A stretch of DNA of 64,000 nucleotides, taken from Actinomycetota bacterium. GTDB lineage: Bacteria > Actinomycetota > UBA4738 > HRBIN12. Where the stretch lies: contig JACQDK010000073.1 of assembly GCA_016201135.1 (NCBI GenBank), positions 2,416 through 66,415 of the forward strand. The letters run 5' to 3'. This document shows positions 2,809-25,579 of this stretch, one piece after another; within the stretch, counting starts at the first letter, position 1; each line of letters starts with the position of its first letter. The translations under genes were made by a program, and so were the position numbers. The notes under the pieces were generated by a model. It saw only the letters and a list, made by a program, of their open reading frames with translations, was not told the origin of the DNA and ran no database searches.

Positions 2809-3086
2809 GTCGGTCTCCCCATGACATCCGGGTGATCGCGGTGTCCGGAGTCAGTCGTCATCCTGCATCTCCGCTTGCCCCTGGCCCCGGCGAACAGGTT
2901 GAGTATGCCGCCAAGGCGCTCCACCCTGTCCCTGAAGTACTCGTACATTGCCCGCAGGCGCTTTCGCAGGTGTTCGTCGTCGGGGGCGAACGTCGCTCGT
3001 CGCCGTTGGGTGGAGCGTGCCTGTCCGACCAGGGCGCAGGCCATTCTCTCTGAGACCCCGAAGCGCCGGCAAAGGTGGGGGGCCAC
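2805..3086 (-). pseudogene. IS3-family transposase OrfB, N-terminal 93-aa fragment only
   Basis: HTH_21-like N-terminus (RRFGVSERMACALVGQ), then the ORF terminates. No integrase/DDE region follows. Confidence 0.65.
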
Positions 3087-3174
3087 CCGTCTGCAGCGTT
3101 CGGGGCTCAGAAGTTTCCCCGAGCCACCTCCTTTAGCATGTCGATGTCAAGCGCCTGGTCGGCGACGATCTTCT

Positions 3175-3426
3175 TCAGGCGGGTGTTCTCTTCTGCAGGT
3201 TCTTCAGCACCACGACGTCTTCTGGGCGCATGGAGTGGTACTGGTGCTTCCAGCGATGGTAGGTCTGGACCGAGATCTCCAGGCGACGCATCACCTCGGG
3301 GAGCTCGATGCCCTCCTCGAGCAGGCACTCGGCCTCACGCAGCTTGCGGATGACCTGCTCGGGGGTGTGGCGCTTCCTCTTCATGAGGGTCACCTCCTGC
3401 CCCTTCGGGGCAGTCGTGACTCTCAT
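3175..3426 (-). CDS. IS3-family transposase OrfA (HTH)
   Basis: MKRKRHTPEQVIRKLREAE...LEISVQTYHRWK is typical of IS3 OrfA. Probable start at the internal M (MKRKRH). Confidence 0.7.
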   Translation of the reverse strand: MRVTTAPKGQEVTLMKRKRHTPEQVIRKLREAECLLEEGIELPEVMRRLEISVQTYHRWKHQYHSMRPEDVVVLKNLQKRTPA

Positions 3427-3724
3427 AGCACGCGTGGACTCGTTTACGGGGGTCAGTTACGGTCAGCCGGACCCCGGCGCGCAGAGTTTGGTAGGCGGGG
3501 GGCCGGGTGCCTCCGTTCGCCAGCCACGTTCCGGCCGTCTGCAGATCGCGGTACCCGAGGGCGGGTTAGATCGAACCTTTCAAGGCAGCGGTAGCCGCTG
3601 CCGGAGGCGCATCAGGCGTCGCAGGTCTGGTCCAAGGCCCCCTTGGGGCACGAACCTGCGCACCGTCGACGCGGCGCTCCCGTCGGCGCAAGGGGCCTCA
3701 GGCGACGCGACCCCACGCCCTCGC

Positions 3725-3912: not shown

Positions 3913-4119
3913 TCAGGGAGTAGGCTGCTCCTGCGCAGCGGGACCCTCTTGGGAATGAAGGCGGCATCGCGTCACTATCAGGTTCCCCTCCCCCAGAAAC
4001 TCCCGGGGAAACACCCACTCGCACCGGATGCAGACCCGGTCGCCTGCTCTGAGCCACCCACGTGTCTCGGGGAGATCCCGGGCCCGGGCGAGCTCCGAAC
4101 CGCAGCACCCGCAGATCAT
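3913..4119 (-). CDS. small zinc-ribbon-like protein (CxxC...CxxC), hypothetical
   Basis: 68 aa, MICGCCGSELARARDLPETRGWLRAGDRVCIRCEW. G/C-rich third positions. Its ATG overlaps the stop of the upstream CBS-domain ORF (ATGA at 4116-4119). GGAGGAG about 12 nt upstream. Confidence 0.35.
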   Translation of the reverse strand: MICGCCGSELARARDLPETRGWLRAGDRVCIRCEWVFPREFLGEGNLIVTRCRLHSQEGPAAQEQPTP

Positions 4120-4796
4120 TTTCGGCTCGTCTCCTCCGCGTCGGATCGCCGGAACAAGCCGACCAAGCGTCCCTCGGACGTGGTAACGAGTGCTGTGGAG
4201 ATGTCGCGCTCGTCCATAAAGCGCGTCATCTCCTCCACGACGACGTTCGGACGGAACGTACTCGGACCCGAGCGCATCACATCTTCGGCTGCCGTGGAGC
4301 TATCGCTTGAGAGCTCGCTCGCGAAGAGCCGGCCGAGCACGACCCCTTCGTCGTTCACCACGATACAGGTGTCCCACCCGGCAGCCCGAACGCGCTCAGC
4401 CACGCCGGACACGGCTTCGTCCAGCCGGCAGGTCGGGACGTCGGACCTAGCGAGACTGCCGACCCGAGGGACCTCCGCCCGCTCGCCTTCGATCGGACGG
4501 CCACGGGCGAACCAGTCGGCCTTTCCCGCGGCGTAGTCGTACACCTTCCGAAACCCCAGGCTCTCGAGCCGCCACGCGGCTCGTGGACTCATGTCTCACT
4601 GGTAATCGTGGCAGTACACGATCACCGGCGCGTCGCGGTTCAGGCGAGCGACCCGCTCACGGTCCAGCTCTTTCAGAGGGAGGTTGATCGCCCCCGGGAG
4701 GTGTTCCTCCCGGTACTCGTCCACCGGAAGGACCTCGACCAGCTGGGCGCCCTCCGAGAGCAGCCCCACGACTTCGTCGGCGTCGATGGCTCTCAC
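4116..4796 (-). pseudogene. rhodanese-domain + CBS-pair protein interrupted by one in-frame TGA (4596..4598)
   Basis: ORFs 4596..4796 (…APVIVYCHDYQ*) and 4116..4592 (MSPRAAWRLESLGFRKVYDYAAGKADW… then two CBS motifs) are in the same frame, separated only by a TGA. The stop falls inside the rhodanese CX5R-type active-site loop, right after the catalytic Cys. Confidence 0.55.
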
Positions 4797-4943
4797 GTCC
4801 CGCCCTCCTTTCTCCTGTCTCCTGCTTCCTGGTGGACTCGCTGCTCGACGGAAAGACTCCTACCCGTTCATAGTAGAAGCCGTCGATGTGGGCAAATCGG
4901 CTTGCTGGGACCCTGGGCGCGTCAACGAGCGACTAAGAATCGG

Positions 4944-7061: not shown

Positions 7062-7221
7062 GTGAGACTGTCGCCCTCCATGGAGCGGGAACCTCGCCGC
7101 TCTACATCACCAGGTCACAAGGCACGTGTCGCCCGGCCCGGGCCGAACGGAGCCTGCGAGACCGCGCATCCTCGCGCCCACCGGCATCGGAGATAGCCCG
7201 CTTCGCAGTTACGGCCGATCC

Positions 7222-7602
7222 CTACCCGGCTGCCTGCATCGACGCCATGACGTCTTGCCGGGCCTCATCGGGCAGGCCCTGCAACCCGGCCTGCGTGGCG
7301 CCCATCTCGCGCTGGCGCGCCTCTTCGGGCAGCTCGCCCAGGACCGATAGGTGGGTCCGGATCAAGCTCACCTGAGTCTCGCGAGGGAGCTCCGACAGTG
7401 CCCACGTCCGGCTCGCCACGAGCTTCTCGTGGTCGTCGTCGGAGAGCGCGTGGATCGCGTGGAGCATCTGCCCCATCGCCTGCCTGCGCTCCTCGTCACC
7501 CATGGCCGCGAACGCCTCGAGCCGAGACCGGAGCATCGTCCGGCGCGCGTTCTCGTCCAGGCTCGCCAGGGTCGCCGCCATATCCTCCATCCCCATCGAC
7601 AT
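7222..7602 (-). CDS. hypothetical soluble protein composed of ELPE(E/D)xR-type helical repeats
   Basis: Start MSMGMEDMAA with GGAAGGAGA RBS. Repeats LSELPRETQVSLIRTHL / LGELPEEARQREMGATQ / LQGLPDEARQDVMASMQ. Lies 5 nt after the stop of 7640..8962. Confidence 0.5.
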   Translation of the reverse strand: MSMGMEDMAATLASLDENARRTMLRSRLEAFAAMGDEERRQAMGQMLHAIHALSDDDHEKLVASRTWALSELPRETQVSLIRTHLSVLGELPEEARQREMGATQAGLQGLPDEARQDVMASMQAAG

Positions 7603-7639
7603 CGTTGTCTCCTTCCCCGCGCTTCTCGCGCGCACTTCC

Positions 7640-8962
7640 TCAGGCCGAGACGAGCCCGGCCATCGTCTCCATCACCGGCTGGCGTTTGTCCTCCGGCAGC
7701 TCGGATACGGACGTCATCATCGCCTTCATGACCTCCCGTCTTGCGTCCTCCGGAAGCTCGCCGAGACACGCCGCGTTCGAGCGCATCACCGCATCCCGAG
7801 ACTCGGCGGGCAACTCCGCAAGCACCCCAACCATCGACTCCAGGAAGCGGAGCCGGCGTGCTTCTCCGGCCCGCACCAGACCCTCCAGCATCCGGCGCAT
7901 GTTGCCGCGCCTCTGCGACTCGGGTTGTACCGCAAGGACTGCGACGCGCCGCCTTACGAACTCCCGTCGGCGGTCGTCCTCGAGGTCGCAAACCCGTCCT
8001 GTCATGATGCGCGCGGTCGCCCTCCACTCGTTGCGCACCGCCGCAGCCCGCAGCGGAACGGCCAGAAGGAAACCCGCCCCTACCAGCGAGAGCCCCATGG
8101 CGAACCCGGCCGGGTTCGAGCCGGGATGGAACCACAGCCATTGGTTCATGAACGAGGACGCGAGACCGTAGATCATCCCGACGAAGCTCGCGTAGAGCAG
8201 GAGCTGCTTCGCGATCGTCTGCCACCAGCGCTCGTCGCCCTCCCGGATCGCCACCTTGAGCAGCGGACGTGCGATCACGAGCAGGACGAAGGCTCCGCCG
8301 ACGATCGACCAGGTCACCCACAGCTTGGGATAGATCGTGGTGAACGGGATCGCACCCATGAACGCGTTGAGGAGCCCGTACATCAGGATCCCCAATCCCA
8401 GGAACAGGACGCTCTCCCGCAGGGCGATCGCCCACCACGAGGTCGCCCAGGGCTCCCCGAGGAGCCGGCCCCGGCGCATCAGCATCTTGAGCATGCCCCG
8501 TACCGGGATGATCGTGAGGATCCCCCAGAAGGCGAGCGTGAAGCCCCACCAGTTCCAGGCCGGAAGCCTGAATTCCGGCTGGAAGGCGAGCATCAGGCCG
8601 AGCCCGGTGAGGATGACGCCCTTCACCAGGTTCACGCCGCCGGGGAGGATCAGGTCGGGGCGGAAACCGAGCCCCGGTAGGTAGTCACCCTGCGCCTGCG
8701 GCAGGGCGAGAACGGCGGCGGAGAGCCAGAACAGCCCGAGGCCCACCAGCAGCAGGGTGGCCTGGGTCGAGAGGGGCTCGATGTTCGACGACAACACCGA
8801 GCCGATGTAGAGGAACAACGGCATGAACACGACGCCGGTGATGAACACCGGGGTCTTGTAGGCGAGGTAGGCCGGCCTTCCCGCCCACGGGTACAGCATC
8901 AACGCGACCACGGTGGACACCAGGACGACGTCCACGTAGGTGCCGATCGAAAGCGGCTGCAT
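7640..8962 (-). CDS. polytopic membrane protein with C-terminal ELPE(E/D)xR repeat region
   Basis: 440 aa. About 8 hydrophobic helices, then LAELPAESRDAVMRSNAAC / LGELPEDARREVMKAMMTS / VSELPEDKRQPVMETMAGL. Paralog at 23446..24459. Confidence 0.6.
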   Translation of the reverse strand: MQPLSIGTYVDVVLVSTVVALMLYPWAGRPAYLAYKTPVFITGVVFMPLFLYIGSVLSSNIEPLSTQATLLLVGLGLFWLSAAVLALPQAQGDYLPGLGFRPDLILPGGVNLVKGVILTGLGLMLAFQPEFRLPAWNWWGFTLAFWGILTIIPVRGMLKMLMRRGRLLGEPWATSWWAIALRESVLFLGLGILMYGLLNAFMGAIPFTTIYPKLWVTWSIVGGAFVLLVIARPLLKVAIREGDERWWQTIAKQLLLYASFVGMIYGLASSFMNQWLWFHPGSNPAGFAMGLSLVGAGFLLAVPLRAAAVRNEWRATARIMTGRVCDLEDDRRREFVRRRVAVLAVQPESQRRGNMRRMLEGLVRAGEARRLRFLESMVGVLAELPAESRDAVMRSNAACLGELPEDARREVMKAMMTSVSELPEDKRQPVMETMAGLVSA

Positions 8963-11746: not shown

Positions 11747-12067
11747 CTATTCCCGGACTTCCATTCCCGGCCAGGAGCCCACACCGCGGACGTCGATCCA
11801 CTTCTTCCGCCAGCCCGCAAGGGCGAGCTTGAGGGCGGCGGGCGATTCGAGCCCCTCGTCGCTGAAGAAGAGTTCGAAATCCTCGCCACCGAACCGCCGG
11901 AACTCGTGCGGGTCCTTGGGAGCGTCGACCGAGGTGGCGAGGAACGAGCACCTGGGCCCGGTGCAGCGCAGCAGGTCCGCCCACACGTAGAGCCGGCCAC
12001 CATGCTCCCGGATGAACCCCACCGCCTCCCGGGAGGCAATGACTTTCACGTTGCCACCGCCCCTCAC
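11747..12067 (-). CDS. small hypothetical protein (GGRLYVW family; paralog at 22173..22478), 5 nt downstream of merA
   Basis: MRGGGNVKVIASREAVGFIREHGGRLYVWADLLRCTGPRC...FRRFGGEDFELFF. Aligns with 22173..22478 (VRVVASPEASAFIHGRGGRLYVWVTRLTCCG...FRELNAGDFLLF). Confidence 0.6.
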   Translation of the reverse strand: MRGGGNVKVIASREAVGFIREHGGRLYVWADLLRCTGPRCSFLATSVDAPKDPHEFRRFGGEDFELFFSDEGLESPAALKLALAGWRKKWIDVRGVGSWPGMEVRE

Positions 12068-14339: not shown

Positions 14340-14705
14340 CTAGATCCAGTCCGGTCCGATGCGGCGGCATGTCGCCAGGTGATCGCGGTGCTCACCGACC
14401 AGGGATCGTGCCATGCGCATCAGGTCTCTCACGCCAGGGTCGGCGATGCGGTAGACGACCTGGCGGCCGCGGCGCTCGGCATCGGCGAACCGGCACCACT
14501 TCAGGCAGGCCAGGTGGTTCGAGACGCGACTCTGGGGCGCCCCAACGAGGCTCACCAACTCCGACACCGTGCGCTCGCGCTCGAGCAGGGCTTCGATGAT
14601 CCGGAGTCTGGTGGGATCGCCGAGGGTCCGGAAGTAGCGCGCCAGCGCCTCCGGCCCGCATGCGTCTTGCGAACCCGACCGGCTTCTTGCTTGCCTCGCG
14701 CCCAT
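14340..14705 (-). CDS. ArsR/SmtB-family transcriptional regulator (ArsR-type mer operon regulator)
   Basis: PTRLRIIEALLERERTVSELVSLVGAPQSRVSNHLACL winged-HTH. ATG with GGGAGGAGAG RBS. The upstream GTG-initiated extension has AT-rich third positions and is probably non-coding. Confidence 0.75.
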   Translation of the reverse strand: MGARQARSRSGSQDACGPEALARYFRTLGDPTRLRIIEALLERERTVSELVSLVGAPQSRVSNHLACLKWCRFADAERRGRQVVYRIADPGVRDLMRMARSLVGEHRDHLATCRRIGPDWI

Positions 14706-14725
14706 CTCTCCTCCCGGCCCGGCCT

Positions 14726-14748
14726 TACAACAGGATATCCTGATTGTA
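14726..14748. promoter_or_regulatory. palindromic operator candidate TACAACAGGATATCCTGATTGTA in the mer promoter
   Basis: Core CAGGATATCCTG (14731-14742) is a perfect 12-bp palindrome flanked by ACAA/TTGT arms. It lies 21-43 nt upstream of the ArsR-family ATG, between the zwf stop and the mer operon. Confidence 0.5.
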
Positions 14749-14767
14749 TCCCTCGCTTGCGCTTCCG

Positions 14768-16288
14768 TCACCCGGGGTGGTTCCAGCGCCTCGGGGCGAT
14801 CAGCGCGTCGGCCTCCCTCGGTCCCCAGGAACCGGGGAGGTACCGGTGGGGCGAGGGCGGATCGGCGAGCGCTGGCTCCAGGATCTCCCAGGCGCGCTCC
14901 ACTCCGGCACCCCCCGTGAAGAGCGTGCGGTCTCCCTGCATCGCGTCGTATAGGAGCCGCTCATACGCCTCGACGAGCCGGGACTTGAACGTCGGCTCGT
15001 ACCAGAAGTCCAGGGCCGCCTCACCGAGCGCGAGGGCGGCGCCGGGACGCTTCGCCATGAACGAGAGGAAGATCCCCTCGTCGGGCTGGATCCGGACCGT
15101 GAGGTGGTTGCCGCCACGCCCGTCCGAACGCGCGGACCGGAACAGCTCTATCGCGGGCTCCCGGAAGGCGATCGTTATCTCGCTCGTTCGGCGCGCCAGA
15201 CTCTTGCCGGTCCGCACGAAGAACGGGACGCCCCGCCACCGATCGTTCTCTACCTCGAGCCGGAGGGCGACGAAGGTTTCCGCCTGCGACGCGGAAGCGA
15301 CCCCCGGCTCGGACCGGTAGCCGAGGTACTGGCCGCGCACCACGTGGGACGGCTCCACCGGCCGGATGGCTCTCAGCACCCTCAGCTTCTCCGCGAGGAG
15401 GGCATCAGCGTCGAGGGACCCGGGCGGCTCCATGGCCACGAACGTCAGAACCTGGAGGATGTGGGGCTGGACCATGTCCCGGAGGGCGCCGACCTCCTCG
15501 TAGAACGAGCCCCTCCCCTCGATCCCGATGTCTTCGGCGACGGTCATCTGGACATGGTCCACGTGGCGACGGTTCCAGAGGGGCTCGAGGATGGCGTTGG
15601 CGAAGCGGAGGACGAGGAGGTTCTGGACGGTTTCCTTGCCCAGGTAGTGGTCGATCCGGAACACACGGGTCTCGTCGAACACGGCCGCGATCGCCCGGTT
15701 AAGCGCCCCGGCACTCGCCGCGTCGTGCCCGAACGGCTTCTCCACGATGACCCTTGACCCAGCCGCGAGCCCCGACTCTGCGAGCCCCCTGATCACCTCC
15801 GCGAACGCGGAGGGAGGCGTGGCCAGGTAGAAGAGCCGGCGGCCCTCCGTCCCGTGCTCCCGGTCCATGCTGCCGAGGTGTTCTGCCAAGCGATCGAAGG
15901 TCGCGAGGTCACCGAGGTCTCCCGACAGATGAGACAGGCCGGCCTCGAACCGCCGCCAGTCCGGGGCGTCGACGTCGCACCGGCAGAAGCTCTCGCTCGA
16001 GGTGCGGGCCCACCGCCGGAATCCCCCTGGATCGAGCTCGCTCCGGGACACACCGACGACCGCGTAGCGCTCGGGGAGGAGGCCCGCCACGCCGAGGTGA
16101 TACAGAGCCGGCAGCAGCTTGCGCCTCGTGAGGTCGCCGGAGCCGCCGAGGATCACGATGCTCTGTGGAGGCGGACGCGACAACCCGCCAGATTCCCCCC
16201 CGAGTGCTCCCCCCACGACCGGACCCACGCCGATCCTCGTCAAGGCCATGACGCCCTTAGTCGATAGAGCCGCTGGTTTGGGTCCCAT
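14768..16288 (-). CDS. zwf: glucose-6-phosphate 1-dehydrogenase
   Basis: SIVILGGSGDLTRRKLLPALYHL, EKPFGHD and RIDHYLGKE motifs. N-terminal start uncertain (alternative MALTRIG). Confidence 0.85.
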   Translation of the reverse strand: MGPKPAALSTKGVMALTRIGVGPVVGGALGGESGGLSRPPPQSIVILGGSGDLTRRKLLPALYHLGVAGLLPERYAVVGVSRSELDPGGFRRWARTSSESFCRCDVDAPDWRRFEAGLSHLSGDLGDLATFDRLAEHLGSMDREHGTEGRRLFYLATPPSAFAEVIRGLAESGLAAGSRVIVEKPFGHDAASAGALNRAIAAVFDETRVFRIDHYLGKETVQNLLVLRFANAILEPLWNRRHVDHVQMTVAEDIGIEGRGSFYEEVGALRDMVQPHILQVLTFVAMEPPGSLDADALLAEKLRVLRAIRPVEPSHVVRGQYLGYRSEPGVASASQAETFVALRLEVENDRWRGVPFFVRTGKSLARRTSEITIAFREPAIELFRSARSDGRGGNHLTVRIQPDEGIFLSFMAKRPGAALALGEAALDFWYEPTFKSRLVEAYERLLYDAMQGDRTLFTGGAGVERAWEILEPALADPPSPHRYLPGSWGPREADALIAPRRWNHPG

Positions 16289-16376: not shown

Positions 16377-17336
16377 CTATGCGCGGACGGAACGGAAGGG
16401 CCGGAGGCCGATCCAACCGAGGAGCGCCGAGCAAGCGACGACGCCCGTCCAGAGGGCGCCCGGGTGAAGCGCGCCGCACAGCGCGGCCACCACGCCGATC
16501 GCCAGGAGCCCCGTCAAGGCCAGAGCGACGGTCGCCCGCGTCCTCGATTCCGGGTACCGACCGAGCAGGCGACCCACGCGGTAGCCGAGATCAGCCTCGT
16601 CGGCCAAAGCAGCGCTCGGAGCGGGCGCCGCACTCGTAAGGCCCACCTTCGCGATGGCCCGGGCGACGACCTCTGGGTCCCCGACCGCCCTCGCCGCATG
16701 GTCGTCGGCCGCCGCCTCCAGCTCCCGCCGCAGCGACGCGAACGCGCGTCGGGCAGGCGGGAGCACTCCGAACGCTTGCGTCATCACGTGGCCGACGAGC
16801 AGGAGGCCAGGATGGCCCCCCTGGACGTGGGCGACCTCATGAGCGACGGCCGCCCGCCGTTCCTCCTCGCTCAGGAGGTCCATGAGGCCTTGGGAGACGA
16901 CCACCCGCGCCCGCCGGAGACCTACGGCGAAGGCCACGGGCCGCTCGACCGGCAGGATGTAGACAGGCACTCCCTCCGGCGTTGCGGTCGGCTCGCCGAC
17001 GCTCAACCGTCGAGGCCCGACGGCGAGCGTCGCGCGAAGCGTCCTGACGGTCGCTACCGCGAGCCACCCGAGGATCGCGCCCACGACCCCGAGGGCGACC
17101 CACGCGAGGATCTGCCTGTCGTGCTCATGAGCTCCGTGAGAAGTTCCGCGCAGCAGCGAACCGGGCCCGGCGAGACAGAGCAAGAACGCGATCGGTGCAA
17201 CGGCAATCCCGATCAGAGCCCAGAGATGGAGCGCCGCGGCCACCCGCGGCGATGCGCGTCGATCGGACACGACCCCGCCGAGGGCGGGAGCGGCAAGGGC
17301 GAGCGCCCCGACCAGCGCGATGCCGGCCGCGTTCAC
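16377..17336 (-). CDS. M56-family metallopeptidase, BlaR1-like membrane signal transducer
   Basis: Polytopic N-terminus plus HEVAHVQGGH zinc motif. Start overlaps the stop of the BlaI-family gene (ATGA). Confidence 0.7.
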   Translation of the reverse strand: MNAAGIALVGALALAAPALGGVVSDRRASPRVAAALHLWALIGIAVAPIAFLLCLAGPGSLLRGTSHGAHEHDRQILAWVALGVVGAILGWLAVATVRTLRATLAVGPRRLSVGEPTATPEGVPVYILPVERPVAFAVGLRRARVVVSQGLMDLLSEEERRAAVAHEVAHVQGGHPGLLLVGHVMTQAFGVLPPARRAFASLRRELEAAADDHAARAVGDPEVVARAIAKVGLTSAAPAPSAALADEADLGYRVGRLLGRYPESRTRATVALALTGLLAIGVVAALCGALHPGALWTGVVACSALLGWIGLRPFRSVRA

Positions 17337-17719
17337 CGTGCGCTCCGTCCCCTACGCAACCGGTCGAGCGTCCTGAGCAGTTCCGGGTCCTTCGCCAATT
17401 CCTCGACGAAGTGCGCCAACACAGCCTTCGGATCCTCCGACGCCGCCAGGAGATCCTGGATCCTCCGGGCCTCGATCTCAGCGGGCGTCCCCGACGCCCG
17501 ATAGAGGTAGGCCCTCCCGGAGAGGACGCGCTCCGCCAAGCCTTTCCCGTGCAGTCGGGTAAGGACGGTCATCACGGTGGTGTAGGCCCGCTTCCGACCC
17601 TTCAGCTTCGACGCGATGTCACGTACCGAGAGCGGCTCCGTCGCGTCCCAGAGGCACCCGAGCACCTGGGCCTCGAGGGCCCCGATGCGATGCCCGGCTA
17701 CGATGCGGCTTCGCGTCAT
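17333..17719 (-). CDS. BlaI/MecI/CopY-family transcriptional repressor
   Basis: LEAQVLGCLWDATEPLSVRDIASKL...YTTVMTVLTRLHGKGL winged helix. Start taken at MTRSRIVAG. Confidence 0.7.
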   Translation of the reverse strand: MTRSRIVAGHRIGALEAQVLGCLWDATEPLSVRDIASKLKGRKRAYTTVMTVLTRLHGKGLAERVLSGRAYLYRASGTPAEIEARRIQDLLAASEDPKAVLAHFVEELAKDPELLRTLDRLRRGRSAR

Positions 17720-17799
17720 GCCACCCGCATGCTGGCCGCCCCACGCCACGTTCGTCAACCGGGAGGCAGCCGGCACCAGTACATTCGGCCTCATGACGC

Positions 17800-17811
17800 C
17801 ACACTAGTGTG
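17800..17811. promoter_or_regulatory. perfect palindrome CACACTAGTGTG upstream of the BlaI/CopY-family gene
   Basis: Read directly. It contains ACA...TGT arms like the TACAnnTGTA boxes of CopY/BlaI-family repressors. Confidence 0.4.
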
Positions 17812-18199
17812 CGAACGCATCGGAGAGCTCTCGCGCCGCGATCCGCGCGGCGGTGACGACCGCAACGCTCACCAGCAGGTACGTGACGATCGCCGTGGCC
17901 CCGGCGACCGCCAGGGTCACCGCGATCGAGGGAGCGCGCTCCGGCGGCGGGAGGCAGCGCCGCGCCCGCCGCAACGTCAGCCACCCGCTTACGACGAGGA
18001 TTGTCACTCCGGCTACGACGAACGGCCACCGGGCAAGCCCGATACCGACGCCGGCCGCCGCGGCGCCGACGCCGGCGCACGCGGTGCACAGTGCCGCAAG
18101 GACGGGACCAAACGACGGTACCGAAGCGAGGAGTCCGCCGAGCGCCCCGCGGCCGGCGCCGCGGGCGCACCCGTCAGCGATCGGAGTTCTGGTGTCCAC
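17804..18199 (-). CDS. membrane protein with CxxC (LCTACAG) at the start of a TM helix
   Basis: Two hydrophobic helices. Start uncertain. Confidence 0.4.
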   Translation of the reverse strand: MDTRTPIADGCARGAGRGALGGLLASVPSFGPVLAALCTACAGVGAAAAGVGIGLARWPFVVAGVTILVVSGWLTLRRARRCLPPPERAPSIAVTLAVAGATAIVTYLLVSVAVVTAARIAARELSDAFAH

Positions 18200-18416
18200 G
18201 CAAAGCCCGACTCCGTGCCCGCTTGAGCCTGCCCAGCTTCAGGCCGGCCCACACAGCGACGACGATCCCGAGAACGGTGAGCGGCCAGTAACGCACGGCG
18301 AGTCCTCCGGCCGCGGCGACGGCCCCCCCGGCCGTGATGGCCAGCAGTGGCACCGCGCAGCAAGCGATCATCGCCACCACGGCAAGCACCGTCCCCGTTC
18401 CACTGCCCTTACTCAC
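18174..18416 (-). CDS. small two-TM membrane protein with CCxxP motif (MerF/MerT-like metal-thiol transporter candidate)
   Basis: VLAVVAMIACCAVPLLAITAG. The CCxxP in TM1 recalls MerT (CCLGP) and MerF (CCFTP). Confidence 0.45.
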   Translation of the reverse strand: MSKGSGTGTVLAVVAMIACCAVPLLAITAGGAVAAAGGLAVRYWPLTVLGIVVAVWAGLKLGRLKRARSRALRGHQNSDR

Positions 18417-18452
18417 TCCCGCCGTCCCTTCCCGTTCCCGGCCCCAGATCGC

Positions 18453-19118
18453 TCATCCTGTCCCTTGGACGGCCTGCTGGAGGAGGCTCAGGTAGGCGGG
18501 ATCGGCCTGCACGTCGTTCACATCCTCTAGGACCCCTCGGCCGTTCAGAAGGAACTTCGTGTCGAGCGCTCGAAGGCTCACGGCCCGGGCGAACGTGTCG
18601 TTCTGATCGAGCGCGACGATCCAGTCGGGCCTCGCGAACTTCTCTCTCCAGCCCCTGAGGGCAGCAGGTCCCTCGGTCGTGTCGACGAACATGACGAGGA
18701 CGTTGAAGGCGTTCCCACCCAGCTGGTCGTCGAGCCGGGAGACCAGCTTCGCGCCCTCCTGGCACGGGAGGCAGTACGACGTCGTGAACCAGATGATCGT
18801 TGGCTTGCCGCTGAGTGAGTCTTTCGTCACGACGCGGCCGTCGACGTCGGTAACGCTGAACGCCGGGAATGGCTTTCCGATCCGGATTGCGCCCGCATCG
18901 ACGCTGACCCTTGGCGCCGTCGACCGGGCTACCGCCCCCGATGCCCGGCTCGGCTGGGGACTTCCCCTCGCGAACACGAGCGCGGTGGCGATCACCGCCA
19001 CGAGCACCACAACGGCCGCCGTCCCAAGCGCGCGGATGCGCTGGTTCCGGCGAGCAGCCTTCCGGCGGGTCTCGTGGGCTCGCGCTCGTGCCGGCTTGAC
19101 ACGGGTCTTCCCGCTCAT
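18453..19118 (-). CDS. TlpA/ResA-like thiol-disulfide oxidoreductase, membrane-anchored
   Basis: N-terminal TM anchor, thioredoxin fold, WFTTSYCLPCQEG. ATGA overlap with ccdA. Confidence 0.75.
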   Translation of the reverse strand: MSGKTRVKPARARAHETRRKAARRNQRIRALGTAAVVVLVAVIATALVFARGSPQPSRASGAVARSTAPRVSVDAGAIRIGKPFPAFSVTDVDGRVVTKDSLSGKPTIIWFTTSYCLPCQEGAKLVSRLDDQLGGNAFNVLVMFVDTTEGPAALRGWREKFARPDWIVALDQNDTFARAVSLRALDTKFLLNGRGVLEDVNDVQADPAYLSLLQQAVQGTG

Positions 19119-20047
19119 AGCTCACTCCTGGATCCGGACGCGGACGCGTCCAACGTCTCTTCTTCCAGCTCGCCAACCTCTGTCGAGGGTTCCTCGTCCT
19201 CTGGCACCCGGTCCCGCATCCGCCGGCCGACCAGCACGATCGCCGCTGCGAAGAAGAGCGCGACGCCGACCGCGAACCAAGCGCGCTCCCCGACGCGGGT
19301 GATGAGGTTCTGGGCGTCATCCTGGAGGGTTTGCATGAACCGGACCGGGCCACTTTCCGCGTTGCCCGACAGGAGCGAGAGCCAGTAGTACGCGACGTAC
19401 GCGCCGCTCAGAACCAGCAGACCGCCGCTGATCCTGCTCATGTATGGCATCACCAGACGGGTCCTGCGGATGAGCACGTCTCGGAACCCCGCGGTGGCGA
19501 GGCACAGGAGCATGAGGACCGTTGCCATCCCCAGGCCGTAGGCTGCGAAGACCCCTAGGATCCCCGACGCCGACCCCTGTGCGAGACCGGCCCCGATCAC
19601 CACGAGAAAGATGGGCAGCGTGCACGAGAGCGAGCCAACACCGTAGGCCACCCCGAATGCGAAGATCGAGCGGTACCCGGCGCCCCCCGAGCCGTGCCGA
19701 AGACCTGGAAGACGAAGAGCCAGATGCCGTCCGGCGAGGAGCCACAGACCTAGCACCATAAGGACTAGGCCGATCACGACCGTGACCCACGGGAGGAACC
19801 GGAGGACCGCCCGCGCCCCCAACGAGAAGACCAATCCGACCGACGCGAAGACGAGCAGGAAGCCGGCCGTCAAGACCAGGCCGACGACGAGGCCGTCGCT
19901 TACATGACCGGGTCGATCATCCTGCGGTGATCCGGCCCCCAAGTAGTAGGAGATGAAAGAAGGAAGCAGCGCGAACCCGCACGGGTTCACCGTAGCGACG
20001 AGGCCCGCGGCGAATGCAAGAGCTAGAGGCACTCCTCCGACCGTCAC
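19115..20047 (-). CDS. ccdA: thiol-disulfide electron transporter CcdA (DsbD family)
   Basis: VNPCGFALLPSF and GSLSCTLPIF conserved Cys motifs in a 6-TM protein. Confidence 0.8.
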   Translation of the reverse strand: MTVGGVPLALAFAAGLVATVNPCGFALLPSFISYYLGAGSPQDDRPGHVSDGLVVGLVLTAGFLLVFASVGLVFSLGARAVLRFLPWVTVVIGLVLMVLGLWLLAGRHLALRLPGLRHGSGGAGYRSIFAFGVAYGVGSLSCTLPIFLVVIGAGLAQGSASGILGVFAAYGLGMATVLMLLCLATAGFRDVLIRRTRLVMPYMSRISGGLLVLSGAYVAYYWLSLLSGNAESGPVRFMQTLQDDAQNLITRVGERAWFAVGVALFFAAAIVLVGRRMRDRVPEDEEPSTEVGELEEETLDASASGSRSEL

Positions 20048-20124
20048 CTACGCCCCTCCTTCCCGGTGCCGCGCTGACGACGAATCCGACGACACCGTGG
20101 TAGCGCCGAGGGCGGAGACGGAGG

Positions 20125-20775
20125 TCATGCAAGAGACCTCCCGACTGCCGCCTGCAGGGTTGCCCGGGATGTGAACCCCGAGTCCCGGAAGGTCACCTTG
20201 CCACTCGGGTCGATGACGACCGTGGTGCTGACGTCGATGACCCCGTACGACTGCGCCACCCGGAAGCCCACATCCTCGCCATACGCCATGTCGCCGCCGC
20301 CGAGGCTCCGGTAGTAGTTCGCCGCCTGCTGAGGTGACATACCGCTGTCGTCGACGACGAGCACGACGAGTCCCTGGCCCTTGAGCGCTTCCCACGTTTT
20401 CGTAAGCGTCGCGATCTCTGCGGTGCAACTGACACAGCCCTGTGCCAAGAAGTCGACGACCACCGTTCGGCCACGGTAGGACGACAGCCGAAACGTCCCA
20501 CCATCAGCCGTCGGGATGGCGAAATCAGGCGCGGTCTCGCCCGGCCTGCTGCCGAGTGGGGCCCGCCCGACGGAGGGCCGCGGGGCCCCCGCCGCAACGA
20601 CTGGACGTGAAGCTGAGGAATGGTCGGGCTCCCTCGCGAGAGCGAGATCCCAAACGACGTAGACGCCGCCGATCACAAGCCCCGCGACGACGAGGAAGAA
20701 GCCGGCTCGACGAACGATGCCCTGCCGGACCCCCGGCTCGGGCGCGCGGGCTCCCTCACACCTGTTCCCTGTCAC
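20125..20775 (-). CDS. TlpA-like thioredoxin-family protein (CVSC active site)
   Basis: APDFAIPTADGGTFRLSSYRGRTVVVDFLAQGCVSCTAE. GTG start overlaps the upstream stop (GTGA). Confidence 0.7.
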   Translation of the reverse strand: MTGNRCEGARAPEPGVRQGIVRRAGFFLVVAGLVIGGVYVVWDLALAREPDHSSASRPVVAAGAPRPSVGRAPLGSRPGETAPDFAIPTADGGTFRLSSYRGRTVVVDFLAQGCVSCTAEIATLTKTWEALKGQGLVVLVVDDSGMSPQQAANYYRSLGGGDMAYGEDVGFRVAQSYGVIDVSTTVVIDPSGKVTFRDSGFTSRATLQAAVGRSLA

Positions 20776-21773
20776 CGCTGAGGTTCCCTGGACATGACCT
20801 TGCGAACTTCCCGCGTGCCGATCGCGGCCGGTGTTCGGTGGCTCGCACCCGAACGCCGGATCCTGCGATCCAGAAGGACCACGTTCAACCCAAGGAGGAT
20901 GAGGGAGAGCCCCATCAGCACGGGCGTCGACCGGTAGAGCGCGCCGACCGCCACGCCGCCCGCGACGGCGGCGACCGGCGCCCCACAGCAGACGGGGACC
21001 GTCGCGAGCGCGGGCAGTGCCGCGAACAGTCCGTGGCGTCGCACCGAGCAGCGCTCGACGGCCGGGAGCCGGAGAGACAGCGAGACGGTCCGAGCGACCA
21101 GGACCGACCCCAAGGCCAAGAACCCGATCGTCACCCAGGGGATGATCGCCGACCACCGCCCAGCAACGACGATCCAGATGCCGGTAAGCCGCCATGACGG
21201 AAGCGGATAGATGCGGAAGAGGAACGACGGCCCGGACCAGGTACCCGCCTGGATCGGGGTGACGACCCCGGACGCAATGACCACGAGGGAGGCGAAGCCG
21301 GCCCCGATGGCGGCCGCGATCACGCGCCTCGCGAGTCTGGACGGCGATGGACCCACCGAGGGAAGGTTCGAAGCGAGGGCCACGATCGCGGCGATCTCAA
21401 GCACCGTCGCGACCACGCCCCAAAGCTCCACGGGCTCGGGCCTCGGGGCTCCCGGGGGTGGGATCAATCGCGTAGTCATCCAGGTGGCTACTAGCACGGC
21501 GCCTCCCCACAGCCCGATCCGATACACGCGGGGGCTTGGCATCAGGAGCAAGGCGAACGCCAGCCACAGCTGGAACGCGTCCGCGGCCAGGAAGAACAGG
21601 CCGAACTGCGGTCCGTCGCGGAAGTGTTCCGGGGTCAGGAAGAGGTGGACGTTCGCTGCCCCCAGCACGAGGGCCACCGTTAGGAAGGTGGCCGACGGCG
21701 ATATGGCCCGCGCCCCCGAGGCCGGCTCCGGCCAGTTGCTCAACTCCACCTCGTGAACGTCATGGACCTTCAT
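20772..21773 (-). CDS. polytopic membrane protein with C-terminal VPVCCGAPV motif
   Basis: 333-aa ORF, at least 8 hydrophobic helices, Cys pair in the last TM region. First gene of the redox/metal cluster. Confidence 0.5.
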   Translation of the reverse strand: MKVHDVHEVELSNWPEPASGARAISPSATFLTVALVLGAANVHLFLTPEHFRDGPQFGLFFLAADAFQLWLAFALLLMPSPRVYRIGLWGGAVLVATWMTTRLIPPPGAPRPEPVELWGVVATVLEIAAIVALASNLPSVGPSPSRLARRVIAAAIGAGFASLVVIASGVVTPIQAGTWSGPSFLFRIYPLPSWRLTGIWIVVAGRWSAIIPWVTIGFLALGSVLVARTVSLSLRLPAVERCSVRRHGLFAALPALATVPVCCGAPVAAVAGGVAVGALYRSTPVLMGLSLILLGLNVVLLDRRIRRSGASHRTPAAIGTREVRKVMSREPQR

Positions 21774-21787
21774 CCAGGAAGGGATTC

Positions 21788-21805
21788 TACTACGAGCGCG
21801 TAGGA
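21788..21805. promoter_or_regulatory. palindrome family copy 1: CTACTACGAGCGCGTAGGA (imperfect)
   Basis: Abuts an ATG at 21809. Shares the half-sites CTACTACG/CGTAG with copies at 22107, 22569 and 23393. Confidence 0.4.
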
Positions 21806-22106
21806 CTCATGCTCGAGGCCCGAGCGCTCCACAAGCAACGACCGGGGGTGTCAAACGTTTGCGCCGAAGTCGCCATCTTCGCCTGCGGGGCATCCTCGGC
21901 TCGGGACGTCGGGGACGTGATGTAGCACTGGTCGAGGAACTCGCCACAATCACGATGTCTGGGTGACGAAGCCACCAGCGCCGTGCGGCCCCACTTCGCA
22001 AGCGGCCGACCCTCTCGCACCAGGACCTTGTGTCTTGCTCCGCTACTTCCTCGCGAAGTTCAGCAGCCGGACCCCCCAGCAGCCTCGTCTCGTCGTTGCT
22101 CCAATC

Positions 22107-22126
22107 CTACTACGTAGCCGTAGTAG
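22107..22126. promoter_or_regulatory. palindrome family copy 2: CTACTACG-TAGC-CGTAGTAG (perfect 8-4-8)
   Basis: Read directly. Lies 47 nt downstream of the minus-strand gene 22173..22478. Confidence 0.5.
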
Positions 22127-22172
22127 CCCGTCGGCGGACATCGACGCGTAGTTCTTCTCTTGGCGGAACGCT

Positions 22173-22478
22173 TCAGATCGGGCCGTCCCAAGACGTCCTG
22201 ATCCGTTGATGCCACCGGCCTCGCACGCTCACCTCCATCTCAGCCGGCGGGTCGCCGATCGATGGATGCACGAAGAGGAGGAAGTCACCGGCATTGAGTT
22301 CCCTGAAGTTCGAGAGGCGCGAGGGCGCCTCCGTGGAGGTGTGAACAGTTCTCACCGACGCCCCGCAGCAAGTGAGCCTAGTCACCCAAACGTAGAGGCG
22401 GCCGCCTCTCCCGTGTATGAACGCACTTGCCTCGGGGGAGGCCACTACGCGAACCGGGCTCAGTCCCTCCTCGGCCAC
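22173..22478 (-). CDS. small hypothetical protein (GGRLYVW family; paralog of 11747..12067)
   Basis: MAEEGLSPVRVVASPEASAFIHGRGGRLYVWVTRLTCCGASV...FRELNAGDFLLFVHP. Confidence 0.55.
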   Translation of the reverse strand: MAEEGLSPVRVVASPEASAFIHGRGGRLYVWVTRLTCCGASVRTVHTSTEAPSRLSNFRELNAGDFLLFVHPSIGDPPAEMEVSVRGRWHQRIRTSWDGPI

Positions 22479-23050
22479 CTCCGGCGTGCCGACCGGGTGG
22501 GCCAGATCGAGCGGTGTCTTGCTCGTTGCTTGCCACGGCCCGCCTCCATCCTCGACTTCGCGATCGATCTACTACTTGATTGTAGGAGCTGCCACCTGCG
22601 GCTGCGGGTCTCGCTGAACTGGCTCGTCGCGGAGCCGCAACAGCAACCCCGCGAGGCCAAGAGGTAGACCGTCGTCGCCAGGAGCGGAGACAGGAAGAAG
22701 TTCCAGCCGGCGCCGACCATCAGCCGGTCGATCGCCCACGTCCCGCCGACGGCGGGGACGGCGAAGGCGTTCTCCCAGAGTGCCGCCGGGGGCCGCGCCG
22801 CCCGAATCGTCCGACCACGAGTAACGAGGAGGGCGAGCCCAACGTACGCGAGGGTGCCGCCGGCCACGAAGAGGAAGACTTCAGCCTGGGACGGAAGGCC
22901 GAACCTACCCAGACACAGGGCACCCGTGGTCCAGATGGTGAGCGTATAGCCGTATGGAACGCCGGCCTTGCTCACCACCTCGGTGAGCGACTCCGAGATC
23001 TTCAGTCCCGGTACTCCTTCGTCGATGCCCAGGGATCGTTCTTGCAGCAC
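22460..23050 (-). CDS. hypothetical membrane protein (C-terminal tail low-complexity, possibly misframed)
   Basis: N-terminal 150 aa are protein-like with about 4 TM helices. The C-terminal 45 aa (GCCCGSATSQFSETRSRRWQ...) look non-protein. Confidence 0.45.
   Translation of the reverse strand: MLQERSLGIDEGVPGLKISESLTEVVSKAGVPYGYTLTIWTTGALCLGRFGLPSQAEVFLFVAGGTLAYVGLALLVTRGRTIRAARPPAALWENAFAVPAVGGTWAIDRLMVGAGWNFFLSPLLATTVYLLASRGCCCGSATSQFSETRSRRWQLLQSSSRSIAKSRMEAGRGKQRARHRSIWPTRSARRRWPRRD
22569..22588. promoter_or_regulatory. palindrome family copy 3: CTACTACT-TGAT-TGTAGGAG (two mismatches)
   Basis: Lies inside the low-complexity 3' tail of ORF 22460..23050. Confidence 0.4.
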
Positions 23051-23346
23051 TCGTCCTCATCGTCGTCGGGCTCAAGATCTGGGTCAGTGGCGGTCTCCGG
23101 CTCCGTGTCCGCGCTCCAATCGAGCCGCTGTGGGGCACACCAGCACATGCAAGCCTCCCTTCGGTCGTCATTCTCATTAGTCGTGCTTGACTCGATGCAG
23201 GGCGCGTTTTCGTGCGGCGGCTGGTAGGAACCTCGGGTGAGCCGAACGAGCTCCGCCCGCCGAGGTGTATCGGGCAAGAGAGCCTGTCGATGGGACTCAC
23301 CTACACACCCCTCGCAGGTCATGCCGTGGAACCGCATCCGCTTCAT
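23002..23346 (-). CDS. Cys-rich acidic protein with N-terminal GMTCxxC-like motif (metal-binding candidate)
   Basis: MKRMRFHGMTCEGCV... CMCWC ... DEDECC. 8 Cys in 114 aa, with a D/E-rich tail. Mixed codon third positions. Confidence 0.4.
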   Translation of the reverse strand: MKRMRFHGMTCEGCVGESHRQALLPDTPRRAELVRLTRGSYQPPHENAPCIESSTTNENDDRREACMCWCAPQRLDWSADTEPETATDPDLEPDDDEDECCKNDPWASTKEYRD

Positions 23347-23392
23347 GGGCCACCCCCTCGTCCTCCACCGGCGTCCGACGCTGCGCTCGAAT

Positions 23393-23416
23393 CTACTCCT
23401 ACCCGGCAGTAGTAGG
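23393..23416. promoter_or_regulatory. palindrome family copy 4: CTACTCCTACCCGGCAGTAGTAGG (same half-sites, longer spacer)
   Basis: About 45-70 nt upstream of the start (23346) of the Cys-rich protein gene. Confidence 0.4.
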
Positions 23417-23445: not shown

Positions 23446-24459
23446 TCAGAAGTGACGGAACAGGCTCGCCGCGTTCGCATCGGCCCGCGAGATCCAGGTC
23501 AGGGCGACCCAGCCGATCGGAAAGGCCATGACCAGATGGGCGAGGAGCGGCCAGAGCGGGAACCACTTCGGGAACCTGATGGCGGGCATCATCGGCGGCA
23601 TCACGACCATCATCGCCAGCCACACGAAGACGCCCCAGGCGAAGGCCAGCCCCCAGTTCCCGTCGCCGGCCAGCATCGTGTACATTATCCCGAAGCTCAC
23701 CCCGTTCAGCGCGTGCCAGGTGTAGCCCCAAAGTGTCACCTTGGCTCGGGAGGTCCCCGTCTCCTCGAGTGTGTCGGGAAGCGCCCTGGAGGCGAGGTGA
23801 CGAAACGTGTTCATCGGTATCTTGGGCAGACCGCGAGGCTGCGAGTATGGGAGCCCGTCCACCCCCTGGGCGGCCTCATCCATCGCCCGCATCAAGATCA
23901 GACGGGTCTCCTCCGGAAGCTCCGCCAGCACCGCCATCTGGGTGGCCATGACCTGCCGGCGAGGCGGATCCGGGAGGCGCCCCAGTCCGGCCATCATGGC
24001 CCCGACGACGGCTCGGCGCTTGGCGGGCTCCAATCTGGCGACGGCGGGGAGCCGAACGGCCATCATCCGCCGGCGTTCCTGTTCGGGGACCCGGGAAAGG
24101 TGCTCGACCAGGCGGCCGATCATGTTGCGCTGAAAACGCGGGGCATCTCCCAGGGCGATGACCCCGAACATCATGGGCATGTCCATGGGGAAGAGGCGCA
24201 GGCCCAGCCCGATGAGGCGGACGATGTCCAGGGCGATCGTGGCCAGGAGGCCGCCCAGGGCCCCCCAGGCAACCAGCTGGACCACCGGCTCGTCCTGCGC
24301 GATTCCGTAGATCATCAGCGCGGCGTAGGCGATCAGAGCGGGCACCCCCAGGTGCCGGATCACCTTCGGAGCGGGAACGCCGAGGATCCGGTCGGCGAGG
24401 AGCAGTGTGATGGGGCCGGCGGTGAGCGCGAACAGCGGGATCAAGAGCCACCAGTTCAT
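23446..24459 (-). CDS. membrane protein with central ELPE-type repeats (paralog of 7640..8962)
   Basis: Start MNWWLLIPLF with GGGAGG RBS. Repeats LPDPPRRQVMATQMAV / LAELPEETRLILMRAM, flanked by N- and C-terminal TM blocks. Confidence 0.6.
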   Translation of the reverse strand: MNWWLLIPLFALTAGPITLLLADRILGVPAPKVIRHLGVPALIAYAALMIYGIAQDEPVVQLVAWGALGGLLATIALDIVRLIGLGLRLFPMDMPMMFGVIALGDAPRFQRNMIGRLVEHLSRVPEQERRRMMAVRLPAVARLEPAKRRAVVGAMMAGLGRLPDPPRRQVMATQMAVLAELPEETRLILMRAMDEAAQGVDGLPYSQPRGLPKIPMNTFRHLASRALPDTLEETGTSRAKVTLWGYTWHALNGVSFGIMYTMLAGDGNWGLAFAWGVFVWLAMMVVMPPMMPAIRFPKWFPLWPLLAHLVMAFPIGWVALTWISRADANAASLFRHF

Positions 24460-24491
24460 GACGAACCTCCCAGAGAGCGTTTCTCCAGTGA

Positions 24492-24924
24492 TTTGGTCGA
24501 GGAGGAGGCGACATCGGGTCCCCGGTTCCGCCTCCTGTACGACGGGCGCTGCGGGTTGTGCGGCCGGTTCGCCGGGCCCGCCGGGCGGCTGGACCGACAG
24601 GGTCGGCTCGCCCTCCTGCCCTTCGACGATCCGCTCGCGGCAGTAGATCTGGCCCGCCTCCCAGACGAGAAGCGCTACTCGGCGTTCCACCTGGTGGCTC
24701 CGGCCGGAAGAATCCGGAGCGGAGAGGAGGCGGTGCTTCCCACCCTGGACCTGCTCGCCGGCGGGAAGGAGCTCGCGGCCGTCCTCCGCCTGGCTCCCGG
24801 CGGCGAGCTAGCGGTGCGGGGAGCGTACCGGTGGGTGGCCCGGAATCGCACGACCCTGGAGCGGTTGTTTCCGGATAGCAGGGATCGCAGGAAATCCTGT
24901 GACGTTGAACGAGATGGAGGGTGA
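24492..24924 (+). CDS. DCC1-like thiol-disulfide oxidoreductase family protein (DUF393)
   Basis: RFRLLYDGRCGLCGRF...RLALLPF. Hidden inside the long spurious ORF 23452..24924. TTG/alternative start uncertain. Its end overlaps the sigma-factor start. Confidence 0.5.
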
Positions 24925-24928
24925 GCGC

Positions 24929-25579
24929 CGCATGGTGAGCCGGACCGATTGGGCCGAACTGACGGACGAGGAGCTCGCGATCCGGTGCTCGGAGCACGTC
25001 GCCGGCTGCATGGACGAGCTCGTCGGCCGGTACGAGCAGCGGGTGCGGGACTGCGCCCAGCGGATGAGCCTGGATCGGCAGGACGCCGAAGACGCGGTGC
25101 AGGAGATCTTCCTCCGCATGGTGAGCTCGCTGCCTCGGTTCCAGGGGAAGTCGGCCTTCGCCACCTGGATGTACCGCCTCTCCCACAACACGTGCATCGA
25201 CGCGTTCCGCAAGGGCACCCGAGACAAAGAGCACCGGCTCACGACGGTTCCCAAAGACGAAGAGGGGGATCCGCTGGATCGCGTCGCGGCGAAGTTCGGA
25301 GACCCCGAGGCGGAACTCGACGCCACGATCCAGGAGTGCTACCTGGGGCAAGCCCTAGCCGGCCTCCCGGAGAGTTATCGGGACATCGTCCGCCTGCGCC
25401 TCGGGGAGGGGCGATCGAACGGGGAGGTCGCCCAGCTCCTCGGGACGACCGTCGACTCGGTGAAGTCGAAGCTGCGGCGCGCGCGCAAGCTCCTGCAGGA
25501 GCGCCTGCTCGAGCGGCGATCCTGCCCGATCTGCAAACAGATGGGCCCCTTCAGGCTGGAGGCATCGGGGGTCGACTGA
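24929..25579 (+). CDS. ECF-type (sigma-70 family) RNA polymerase sigma factor
   Basis: Region 2 (DAEDAVQEIFLRMV, FATWMYRLSHNTCIDAFR) and region 4 (YRDIVRLRLGEGRSNGEVAQLLGTTVDSVKSKLRRAR). ATG preceded by GGAGGG. Confidence 0.75.
   Translation, partial: RMVSRTDWAELTDEELAIRCSEHVAGCMDELVGRYEQRVRDCAQRMSLDRQDAEDAVQEIFLRMVSSLPRFQGKSAFATWMYRLSHNTCIDAFRKGTRDKEHRLTTVPKDEEGDPLDRVAAKFGDPEAELDATIQECYLGQALAGLPESYRDIVRLRLGEGRSNGEVAQLLGTTVDSVKSKLRRARKLLQERLLERRSCPICKQMGPFRLEASGVD

Follow-up and report, generated by a model that had tools for sequence, protein, structure and literature searches.

Repeated dyads in an actinobacterial mercury and thiol-redox gene array as likely operators of a BlaI-family repressor

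What reads the four copies of an inverted repeat, or dyad, that lie close together among minus-strand genes for membrane, redox and mercury-resistance proteins in a 64-kb stretch of DNA (hereafter the window) from an Actinomycetota bacterium (contig JACQDK010000073.1)? An earlier note on this DNA took the dyads for binding sites of a dedicated regulator, suggested that this regulator may act in trans, since none is encoded inside the locus, and offered a small RNA as an alternative for the stretch free of open reading frames (ORFs) in their midst. We find that the dyads are likely to be the operators of a dimeric winged-helix repressor, a BlaI-family protein (Penicillinase_R, Rv1846c-like) whose gene lies in the window itself, at 17333-17719. 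What can be observed directly in the DNA is that the motif is there and conserved, that it lies close to promoters, and that it occurs together with blaI genes and is enriched ahead of them; this reading draws on these observations.

Dyads at promoter positions

Allowing up to three mismatches, CTACTACG-N4-CGTAGTAG matches the window six times, against 0.05 matches expected from shuffles, and four of the six form a cluster spanning 1.7 kb (S1, 21787-21806; S2, 22107-22126; S3, 22569-22588; S4, 23396-23415). The count of four dyads within 1.7 kb, one of them a perfect 8-4-8 palindrome at 22107..22126, is thus borne out, as is the placement described earlier, with S4 before a 'Cys-rich' ORF, S3 in the tail of ORF 22460-23050, S2 after a small-protein gene and S1 before the ATG of a gene for a 333-aa membrane protein. 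The positions given earlier were likewise correct, save that a start at 23393 reflects a 3-nt-shifted register of the site 23396-23415. The underlying unit is a 7-6-7 dyad, CTmCTAC-N6-GTAGkAG, in which the core CTAC-N6-GTAG is invariant.

S1 to S4 share one polarity, and each precedes a minus-strand gene or gene remnant. The dyads sit 14-91 nt before start codons, and in three or four of them the half nearer the gene overlaps or adjoins a -10-like hexamer of the form TAnnnT; these hexamers were picked by eye on the minus strand, so that the promoter elements are inferred rather than mapped. S1 reads GTCCTACGCGCTCGTAGTAG and then AAT, so that its hexamer is TAGAAT, and the ATG of the 333-aa membrane gene follows after 14 nt, while S2, the perfect palindrome CTACTACGGCTACGTAGTAG followed by GAT (TAGGAT), lies 47 nt past the stop codon of the small-protein gene. 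S3, CTCCTACAATCAAGTAGTAG followed by ATC, yields a hexamer (TAGATC) that lacks the final T of TAnnnT; it lies within the 3' tail of ORF 22460-23050, 91 nt before the small-protein gene, which belongs to the CC/Se-motif family. S4, CTACTACTGCCGGGTAGGAG, spans 23390-23415 together with its hexamer TAGATT and lies 44 nt before the ORF that holds the first 13 codons of merA; counted alone, the dyad (23396-23415) is 50 nt before this 'Cys-rich' ORF.

Elsewhere on the minus strand, a decayed operator, S5 (CTACCACGGTGTCGTCGGAT, 20084-20103), precedes a CcdA-like gene and has its core GTAG mutated to GTCG. A tentative fifth site, S0 (CTCCTACCCGTTCATAGTAG, 4857-4876, minus strand), is proposed because it falls between genes, with a rhodanese-CBS gene pair starting 60 nt further on and a glycogen-debranching gene on the divergent side, and because its position weight matrix (PWM) score of 21.4 equals that of S4; its counterpart is not conserved in the related locus L002. 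The match at 6014 we ascribe to chance, as it falls at Tyr-Tyr codons inside the glycogen-debranching gene with a PWM score below threshold. Among 30 collected dyads, the two halves rarely agree, one being nearly always CTACTAC and the other CTCCTAC (read as GTAGGAG), and the position pair 3/18 is A/G in 13, C/T in nine and Watson-Crick in six. This asymmetry may reflect a -10 constraint or asymmetric binding.

For comparison, 13 related loci (given L numbers here) were fetched via homologs of the small protein and of the 333-aa membrane protein, and a metagenome scan with the 333-aa protein alignment returned three loci. One protein of the window is 100% identical to a hypothetical protein from the MAG of an uncultured 'Actinobacteria bacterium'. 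Ten related metagenomic loci (L001, L002/L003, L007, L008, L010, L011, L012, L013 and L014) have the dyad at promoter positions that are orthologous, ahead of merA and of the genes for the CC/Se, ClpP-like, 333-aa membrane and CcdA-like proteins. In the syntenic L001, dyads precede a full-length merA, the CC/Se gene, the membrane gene and the CcdA-like gene, the one ahead of the membrane gene being identical to S1. An orthologous S1 dyad is present in eight other loci, and alignment of the region upstream of the 333-aa gene from nine loci leaves T-CTAC..GTAGTA..T as the sole invariant block between diverged flanks, its final T being the last base of the -10-like hexamer. S2 resembles the operator at 9116 in L002, which lies ahead of a ClpP-like gene; the ortholog of S3, at 3646 in L001, differs by 1 nt and is intergenic there; and S4 has orthologs ahead of full-length merA in L001, L010 and L012, with one at the matching position in L008, where genes were not called. 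Intact orthologs of S5, CTACTACG-N4-TGTAGGAT, occur in L001, L002/L003, L007, L010 and L012. Conserved in sequence, placed at promoters and free of RNA-type covariation, the dyads have the features expected of binding sites for a dedicated regulator, as the earlier note had supposed.

A BlaI-type repressor and its protease

The proposed cognate regulator is encoded about 4 kb downstream of the dyads, where a gene pair for a BlaI-family repressor and a protease closes the same co-directional minus-strand array as S1-S4, so that the earlier statement that the locus encodes no regulator does not hold, and the suggestion of control in trans is not supported. Within ORF 17333-17794, the conserved start of the repressor is M26 (position 17719), and the 128-aa protein encoded from there to 17333 on the minus strand matches Penicillinase_R (PF03965, E = 2.2e-19, 70 bits against a cutoff of 22.6). 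Its best solved structure is 2G9W, M. tuberculosis Rv1846c/BlaI (E = 1e-13), with 1SD4 also matched (5e-3), and its orthologs are 59-88% identical. The start of the partner gene (16377-17336, minus strand) overlaps at 17336 the blaI stop at 17333, and it encodes a BlaR1-like M48/M56 HExxH membrane metalloprotease of 319 aa that matches Peptidase_M48 (1e-11) and, below that model's cutoff, Peptidase_M56 (0.0017), with no penicillin-binding sensor or other additional domain found. Invariant in the protease alignment are the HExxH motif, three Cys (C54, C287, C302) and three further His (H67, H175, H291). By eye, the invariant Cys and His lie in or near hydrophobic segments, and they are possible metal- or thiol-sensing residues. 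Close by, at 17801-17810, the stop codon of the upstream membrane gene falls within a 10-bp palindrome, ACACTAGTGT, some 80 nt ahead of the conserved start of blaI; the window has just six AT-rich 10-bp palindromes, this one included.

The dyad is present in every locus with the BlaI pair (the window, L002, L010, L011, L012, L013 and L014), and L004, L005 and L006, which hold ArsR, MerB, MerA, the membrane gene and a redoxin and no BlaI, contain no site scoring at least 14. An operator before the repressor's own unit, decayed in the window as S5, is seen in relatives (L002, L010, L012, L015, L016, L017, L033, L038, L085 and others). In L002 and L010 it is the dyad before the CcdA-like gene that heads an operon ending in the blaI-protease pair, and the site at 8291 in L012 probably does the same, a further dyad in that locus preceding a unit of a 123-aa gene and blaI; blaI itself has the dyad 10-30 bp ahead of it in L015, L016 and L017 (50-60% identity).

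A scan of a genome collection with the BlaI alignment gave 80 actinobacterial blaI loci, in which we counted dyads of the class CTACTAC-N5/6-GTAGTAG. We find 26 in the 22.3 kb that lie between -250 and +30 of blaI, against 42 in the other 1129 kb, an enrichment of ≈31-fold, with triple sites before blaI in L033 and L085 (Aeromicrobium-type) and L038 (actinobacterium LLX17). On the strength of this enrichment across the 80 loci, the dyad class appears to be a generic operator of actinobacterial BlaI-family repressors and the window to carry an N6 variant of it, N5 being the spacer that prevails in most cultivated actinobacterial relatives. MerA or redoxin genes lie nearby solely in the closer homologs (at least 50% identity: L014, L016 and L017), so the link to mercury and thiol genes is specific to this clade.

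The cluster holds what marks the BlaI/MecI/CopY group, namely a Penicillinase_R protein, an adjacent HExxH zinc protease, and TAC../..GTA palindromes at promoter positions. Like the window, M. tuberculosis, whose BlaI regulon was reportedly described by Sala et al. in 2009, pairs an actinobacterial winged-helix repressor (BlaI, Rv1846c) with a zinc metalloprotease of ~320 aa that lacks a penicillin-binding sensor domain (BlaR, Rv1845c), and has several palindromic operators spread across transcription units, including its own operon, where in our case an intact operator is seen in the relatives. The targets differ, being blaC, ATP synthase and membrane proteins in M. tuberculosis, whereas the apparent targets in the window are the merA position, the CC/Se protein, the ClpP-like position, a putative Hg transporter, redoxins and CcdA. 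The BlaI-BlaR1 and MecI-MecR1 systems of S. aureus and B. licheniformis have the same repressor family (1SD4/1XSD match), and they combine tandem, promoter-overlapping TAC../..GTA dyads with derepression via a membrane metalloprotease partner. The 319-aa window protease has no counterpart of the extracellular penicillin-binding sensor domain of BlaR1 and MecR1, and BlaI and MecI control beta-lactam resistance genes through half-sites TACA/TGTA rather than CTACTAC.

CopY/TcrY repressors (cop box TACAnnTGTA) share with the window the fold family, the TAC core of the half-site and a thiophilic-metal theme, but they have no protease partner and sense metal directly. The window repressor scores 25.3 bits against the CopY_TcrY model TIGR02698 (cutoff 121.95), lacks the CopY-type C-terminal CxCx4CxC metal motif and has no Cys in its C-terminal half. 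Regulation of mer genes by MerR or ArsR resembles the window in target class (merA, Hg transport) and in having a dyad at the promoter. The ArsR-only loci, however, have no dyad, and the gene listings of the syntenic loci include no MerR-family member.

The gene array and its rearrangements

Read along the minus strand, the array runs from a 337/414-aa membrane protein through S4 and the ORF with a merA-like start, a further membrane protein, S3 and the CC/Se small protein, and S2 and the ORF-free stretch, to S1 and the 333-aa membrane protein. It continues with a redoxin, a CcdA-like protein, a TlpA-like redoxin, two small Cys-containing membrane proteins, BlaI, the M48/M56 protease, G6PD, ArsR, MerB, MerA and a second CC/Se paralog. 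The five genes from the first redoxin to the small membrane proteins (17804-20700, minus strand) lead to blaI, in an order that is shared with L002, L010 and L014 and in part with L011 and L012.

The 333-aa membrane protein (20772-21773, minus strand) is polytopic and belongs to a family found in uncultured Actinomycetota only, with an invariant VPVCCG motif, several further invariant His, Trp and Arg residues, and no matching Pfam or NCBIfam model. The family adjoins mer genes in six of the seven gene-called locus types, L013 being the exception, and the protein is possibly an Hg(II) transporter, a candidate new one. When five proteins of the locus were searched with Pfam and NCBIfam models, the single match, a weak one, placed the small 'GGRLYVW' protein (22173-22478, minus strand), whose homologs were found in uncultured Actinomycetota only, in the CC/Se-motif family (PF28096/NF041239). 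Members of this (seleno)protein family occur twice in the window, at 22173-22478 with its own putative BlaI-type operator and as a paralog (11747-12067) directly after merA, and again in L011 (9914-10216) and L012 (10420-10791). Found repeatedly beside merA, they may take part in the handling of Hg or thiols.

Three further observations concern the surroundings. The gene for the 337/414-aa membrane protein (23446-24690) has weaker paralogous matches at 7219-7936 (7640-8962 / 7222-7635) and is divergent from an ECF sigma gene (24899-25579), a pairing kept in L002, L010 and L012; its product could be an anti-sigma or sensor module. The rhodanese and CBS-domain pair that S0 precedes (4593-4797 and 4116-4592) recurs at the edge of the mer/thiol cluster in L002 (19969-20640) and L004 (12818-13510). 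Within 436-3456, a helicase-like ORF (790 aa, 436-2808) adjoins a small ORF (3175-3426) that by eye resembles an IS3-family transposase orfA, which hints that the metal-resistance region adjoins mobile DNA.

Comparison with L001 also accounts for the oddities of the cluster itself. Homology with L001 takes in the end of the 337-aa gene, S4 and the first 13 codons of merA and stops near 23306, and past that codon merA is replaced by 665 bp unrelated to L001 (22641-23305). The 'Cys-rich' ORF (23002-23346, minus strand) is chimeric, its codons 1-13 being the start of the merA HMA domain (MKRMRFHGMTCEGC) and the remainder, after the junction near 23306, an unrelated, acidic and Cys-rich tail. Next to it, the membrane-protein gene at 22641-23005 (minus strand) is 61% identical to a 146-aa protein of L010, where the homolog lies between G6PD and ArsR. 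Homology with L001 starts again at 22640, so the tail of ORF 22460-23050 that was called dubious earlier (22460-22640), which has atypical codon-position GC and holds S3, is former intergenic promoter DNA.

Further along, 205 bp that include S2 (22149-21945) have no aligned counterpart in L001, and the ORF-free stretch retains, at 21902-21944 on the minus strand, the last ~12 codons (EFLDQCYITSP) of a ClpP-like gene that is present in L001, L002, L011 and L012 and otherwise deleted in the window. The ORF-free stretch is therefore a deletion scar, and S2 is probably the orphaned promoter and operator of the ClpP-like gene. As for CAAACGTTTG, which had also been pointed out in this stretch, it is indeed present, at 21852, but it is unremarkable against a background of 137 perfect 10-bp palindromes in the window, compared with ~121 in shuffles, and is conserved in the closest locus only; we do not treat it as an element.

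Competing explanations and the proposed switch

Could the dyads instead serve a regulator encoded elsewhere in the genome and acting in trans? The want of an intact dyad directly before blaI in the window would suit such a regulator, as would a view limited to 64 kb of a fragmentary metagenome-assembled genome, but across the 80 loci the dyad tracks blaI and is concentrated just upstream of it, even in loci that otherwise have no gene in common with the window, and we consider control in trans improbable. An obvious local candidate is the ArsR/SmtB-family metalloregulator at 14340-14771, whose gene is a neighbour of merB-merA both in the window and in the majority of related loci. ArsR/SmtB proteins are the usual type of mer regulator in Actinobacteria, and ArsR repressors also use promoter-overlapping dyads. 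That this protein reads the dyads is nevertheless very unlikely, as the ArsR-MerB-MerA loci L004, L005 and L006 are without a dyad even though they also hold the 333-aa membrane gene and a redoxin, L013, L014 and L015 have the dyad with no ArsR homolog detected in the sequence examined, and many distant loci have dyads before blaI with no ArsR nearby.

The gene content between dyads differs among loci, and the replacement of merA and the deletion of the ClpP-like gene lie near S4 and S2, as recombination or mobile-element sequences at cassette boundaries might explain. The homology breakpoints (~23306, 22640, 22150 and 21944) are, however, 24-180 nt from the dyads and not at them, no recombinase gene lies beside the dyads in the syntenic loci, and a fixed place just ahead of start codons, and of blaI even where the context is unrelated, suits operators, which leaves this explanation with very little probability. 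We give next to none to RNA hairpins, whether terminators or attenuators, or to a small RNA in the ORF-free stretch. S2 can form an 8-bp hairpin (-14.9 kcal/mol, z = -2.6) 47 nt after a stop codon, yet S1, S3 and S4 fold no better than shuffles, the pair 3/18 is non-complementary in 24 of the 30 sites with no compensatory change, there is no U-tract at the dyads and no Rfam match, and the stretch in which a small RNA had been suggested is the remnant of the ClpP-like gene. A promoter of the ECF sigma factor (24899-25579) was set aside by reasoning alone, the dyad being symmetric and also found before blaI in loci with no detected sigma homolog. As to a MerR-type merO, no MerR-family domain is among the precomputed Pfam hits of L001, L002, L010, L011 and L012, the whole window not having been scanned for MerR, and the dyad overlaps the -10-like hexamer instead of sitting between -35 and -10 as in merO (19-20-bp spacer).

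Several points weigh against the assignment to the BlaI-type repressor. No intact dyad stands directly before blaI in the window, and with S5 decayed, autoregulation there would need read-through from S1. The -10 assignments were made by eye, and an E. coli-type promoter scan found no promoter, a result to be expected in an actinobacterium of 69% GC, the value for the window; moreover, a clean TAnnnT is absent at a few orthologous sites, e.g., L002 9116 and L008 7243. The operator of M. tuberculosis BlaI is reported to be of a TAC[G/T]AC type. Finally, the locus in the window has partly degenerated, and a useful regulatory role may have been lost at some of the sites, above all at S2.

Taking the BlaI-type repressor as the cognate regulator, we infer binding, repression, proteolytic induction and the identity of the signal by analogy with the known systems. 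A repressor dimer would occupy the dyad and occlude the -10 region, and since the gene-proximal half of the dyad overlaps or adjoins the -10-like hexamer, bound repressor would block RNA polymerase at four tandem promoters. The units served would be the merA position (S4), the CC/Se small protein (S3), the ClpP-like position (S2), and the 333-aa membrane protein, the redoxin and the following genes (S1). Derepression would proceed as in BlaI/BlaR1, with the co-transcribed membrane M48/M56 zinc protease cleaving the repressor on signal, and the content of the regulon, together with the absence of a CopY-type Cys motif from the repressor, points to the protease as the sensor. With no penicillin-binding domain in this protease, and with merA, redoxins, CcdA and a putative Hg transporter in the regulon, our guess at the signal, a tentative one, is Hg(II) or (envelope) thiol stress.

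The dyads and their proposed regulator fit the BlaI/BlaR kind, for which a regulon of mercury and thiol genes is unusual, and come nearest to the Rv1846c/Rv1845c type of M. tuberculosis. A full-text search returned no paper linking BlaI to merA, and a literature search for the motif string gave nothing relevant. Most BlaI/BlaR-family systems are without a beta-lactam sensor domain, and their signals and roles are largely unknown (PMC13492132), while a recent survey of mer gene diversity names MerR and MerD alone as mer regulators (PMC8261052). Against this background, it is conceivable, if doubtful, that a BlaI/BlaR switch devoid of a sensor domain constitutes an unrecognised third mode of control of mercury resistance and envelope thiol-redox functions, beside MerR and ArsR, in which the protease would sense Hg(II) or thiol stress via its invariant, membrane-embedded Cys and His and cleave the repressor.

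The operator consensus CTmCTACG-N4-yGTAGkAG (in other genera, CTACTA[CT]-N5-[GA]TAGTAG) is usable for predicting BlaI regulons across Actinomycetota. The putative regulon, with merA, a CC-motif membrane protein, redoxins, CcdA, the CC/Se protein and, in relatives, a ClpP-like protein, provides a concrete and testable guess at the signal, mercury or another thiol-reactive stress, and suggests that mer genes may be controlled in a way that involves neither MerR nor ArsR. If the third mode of control is real, it would give the large class of sensor-less BlaR proteases its first physiological signal.

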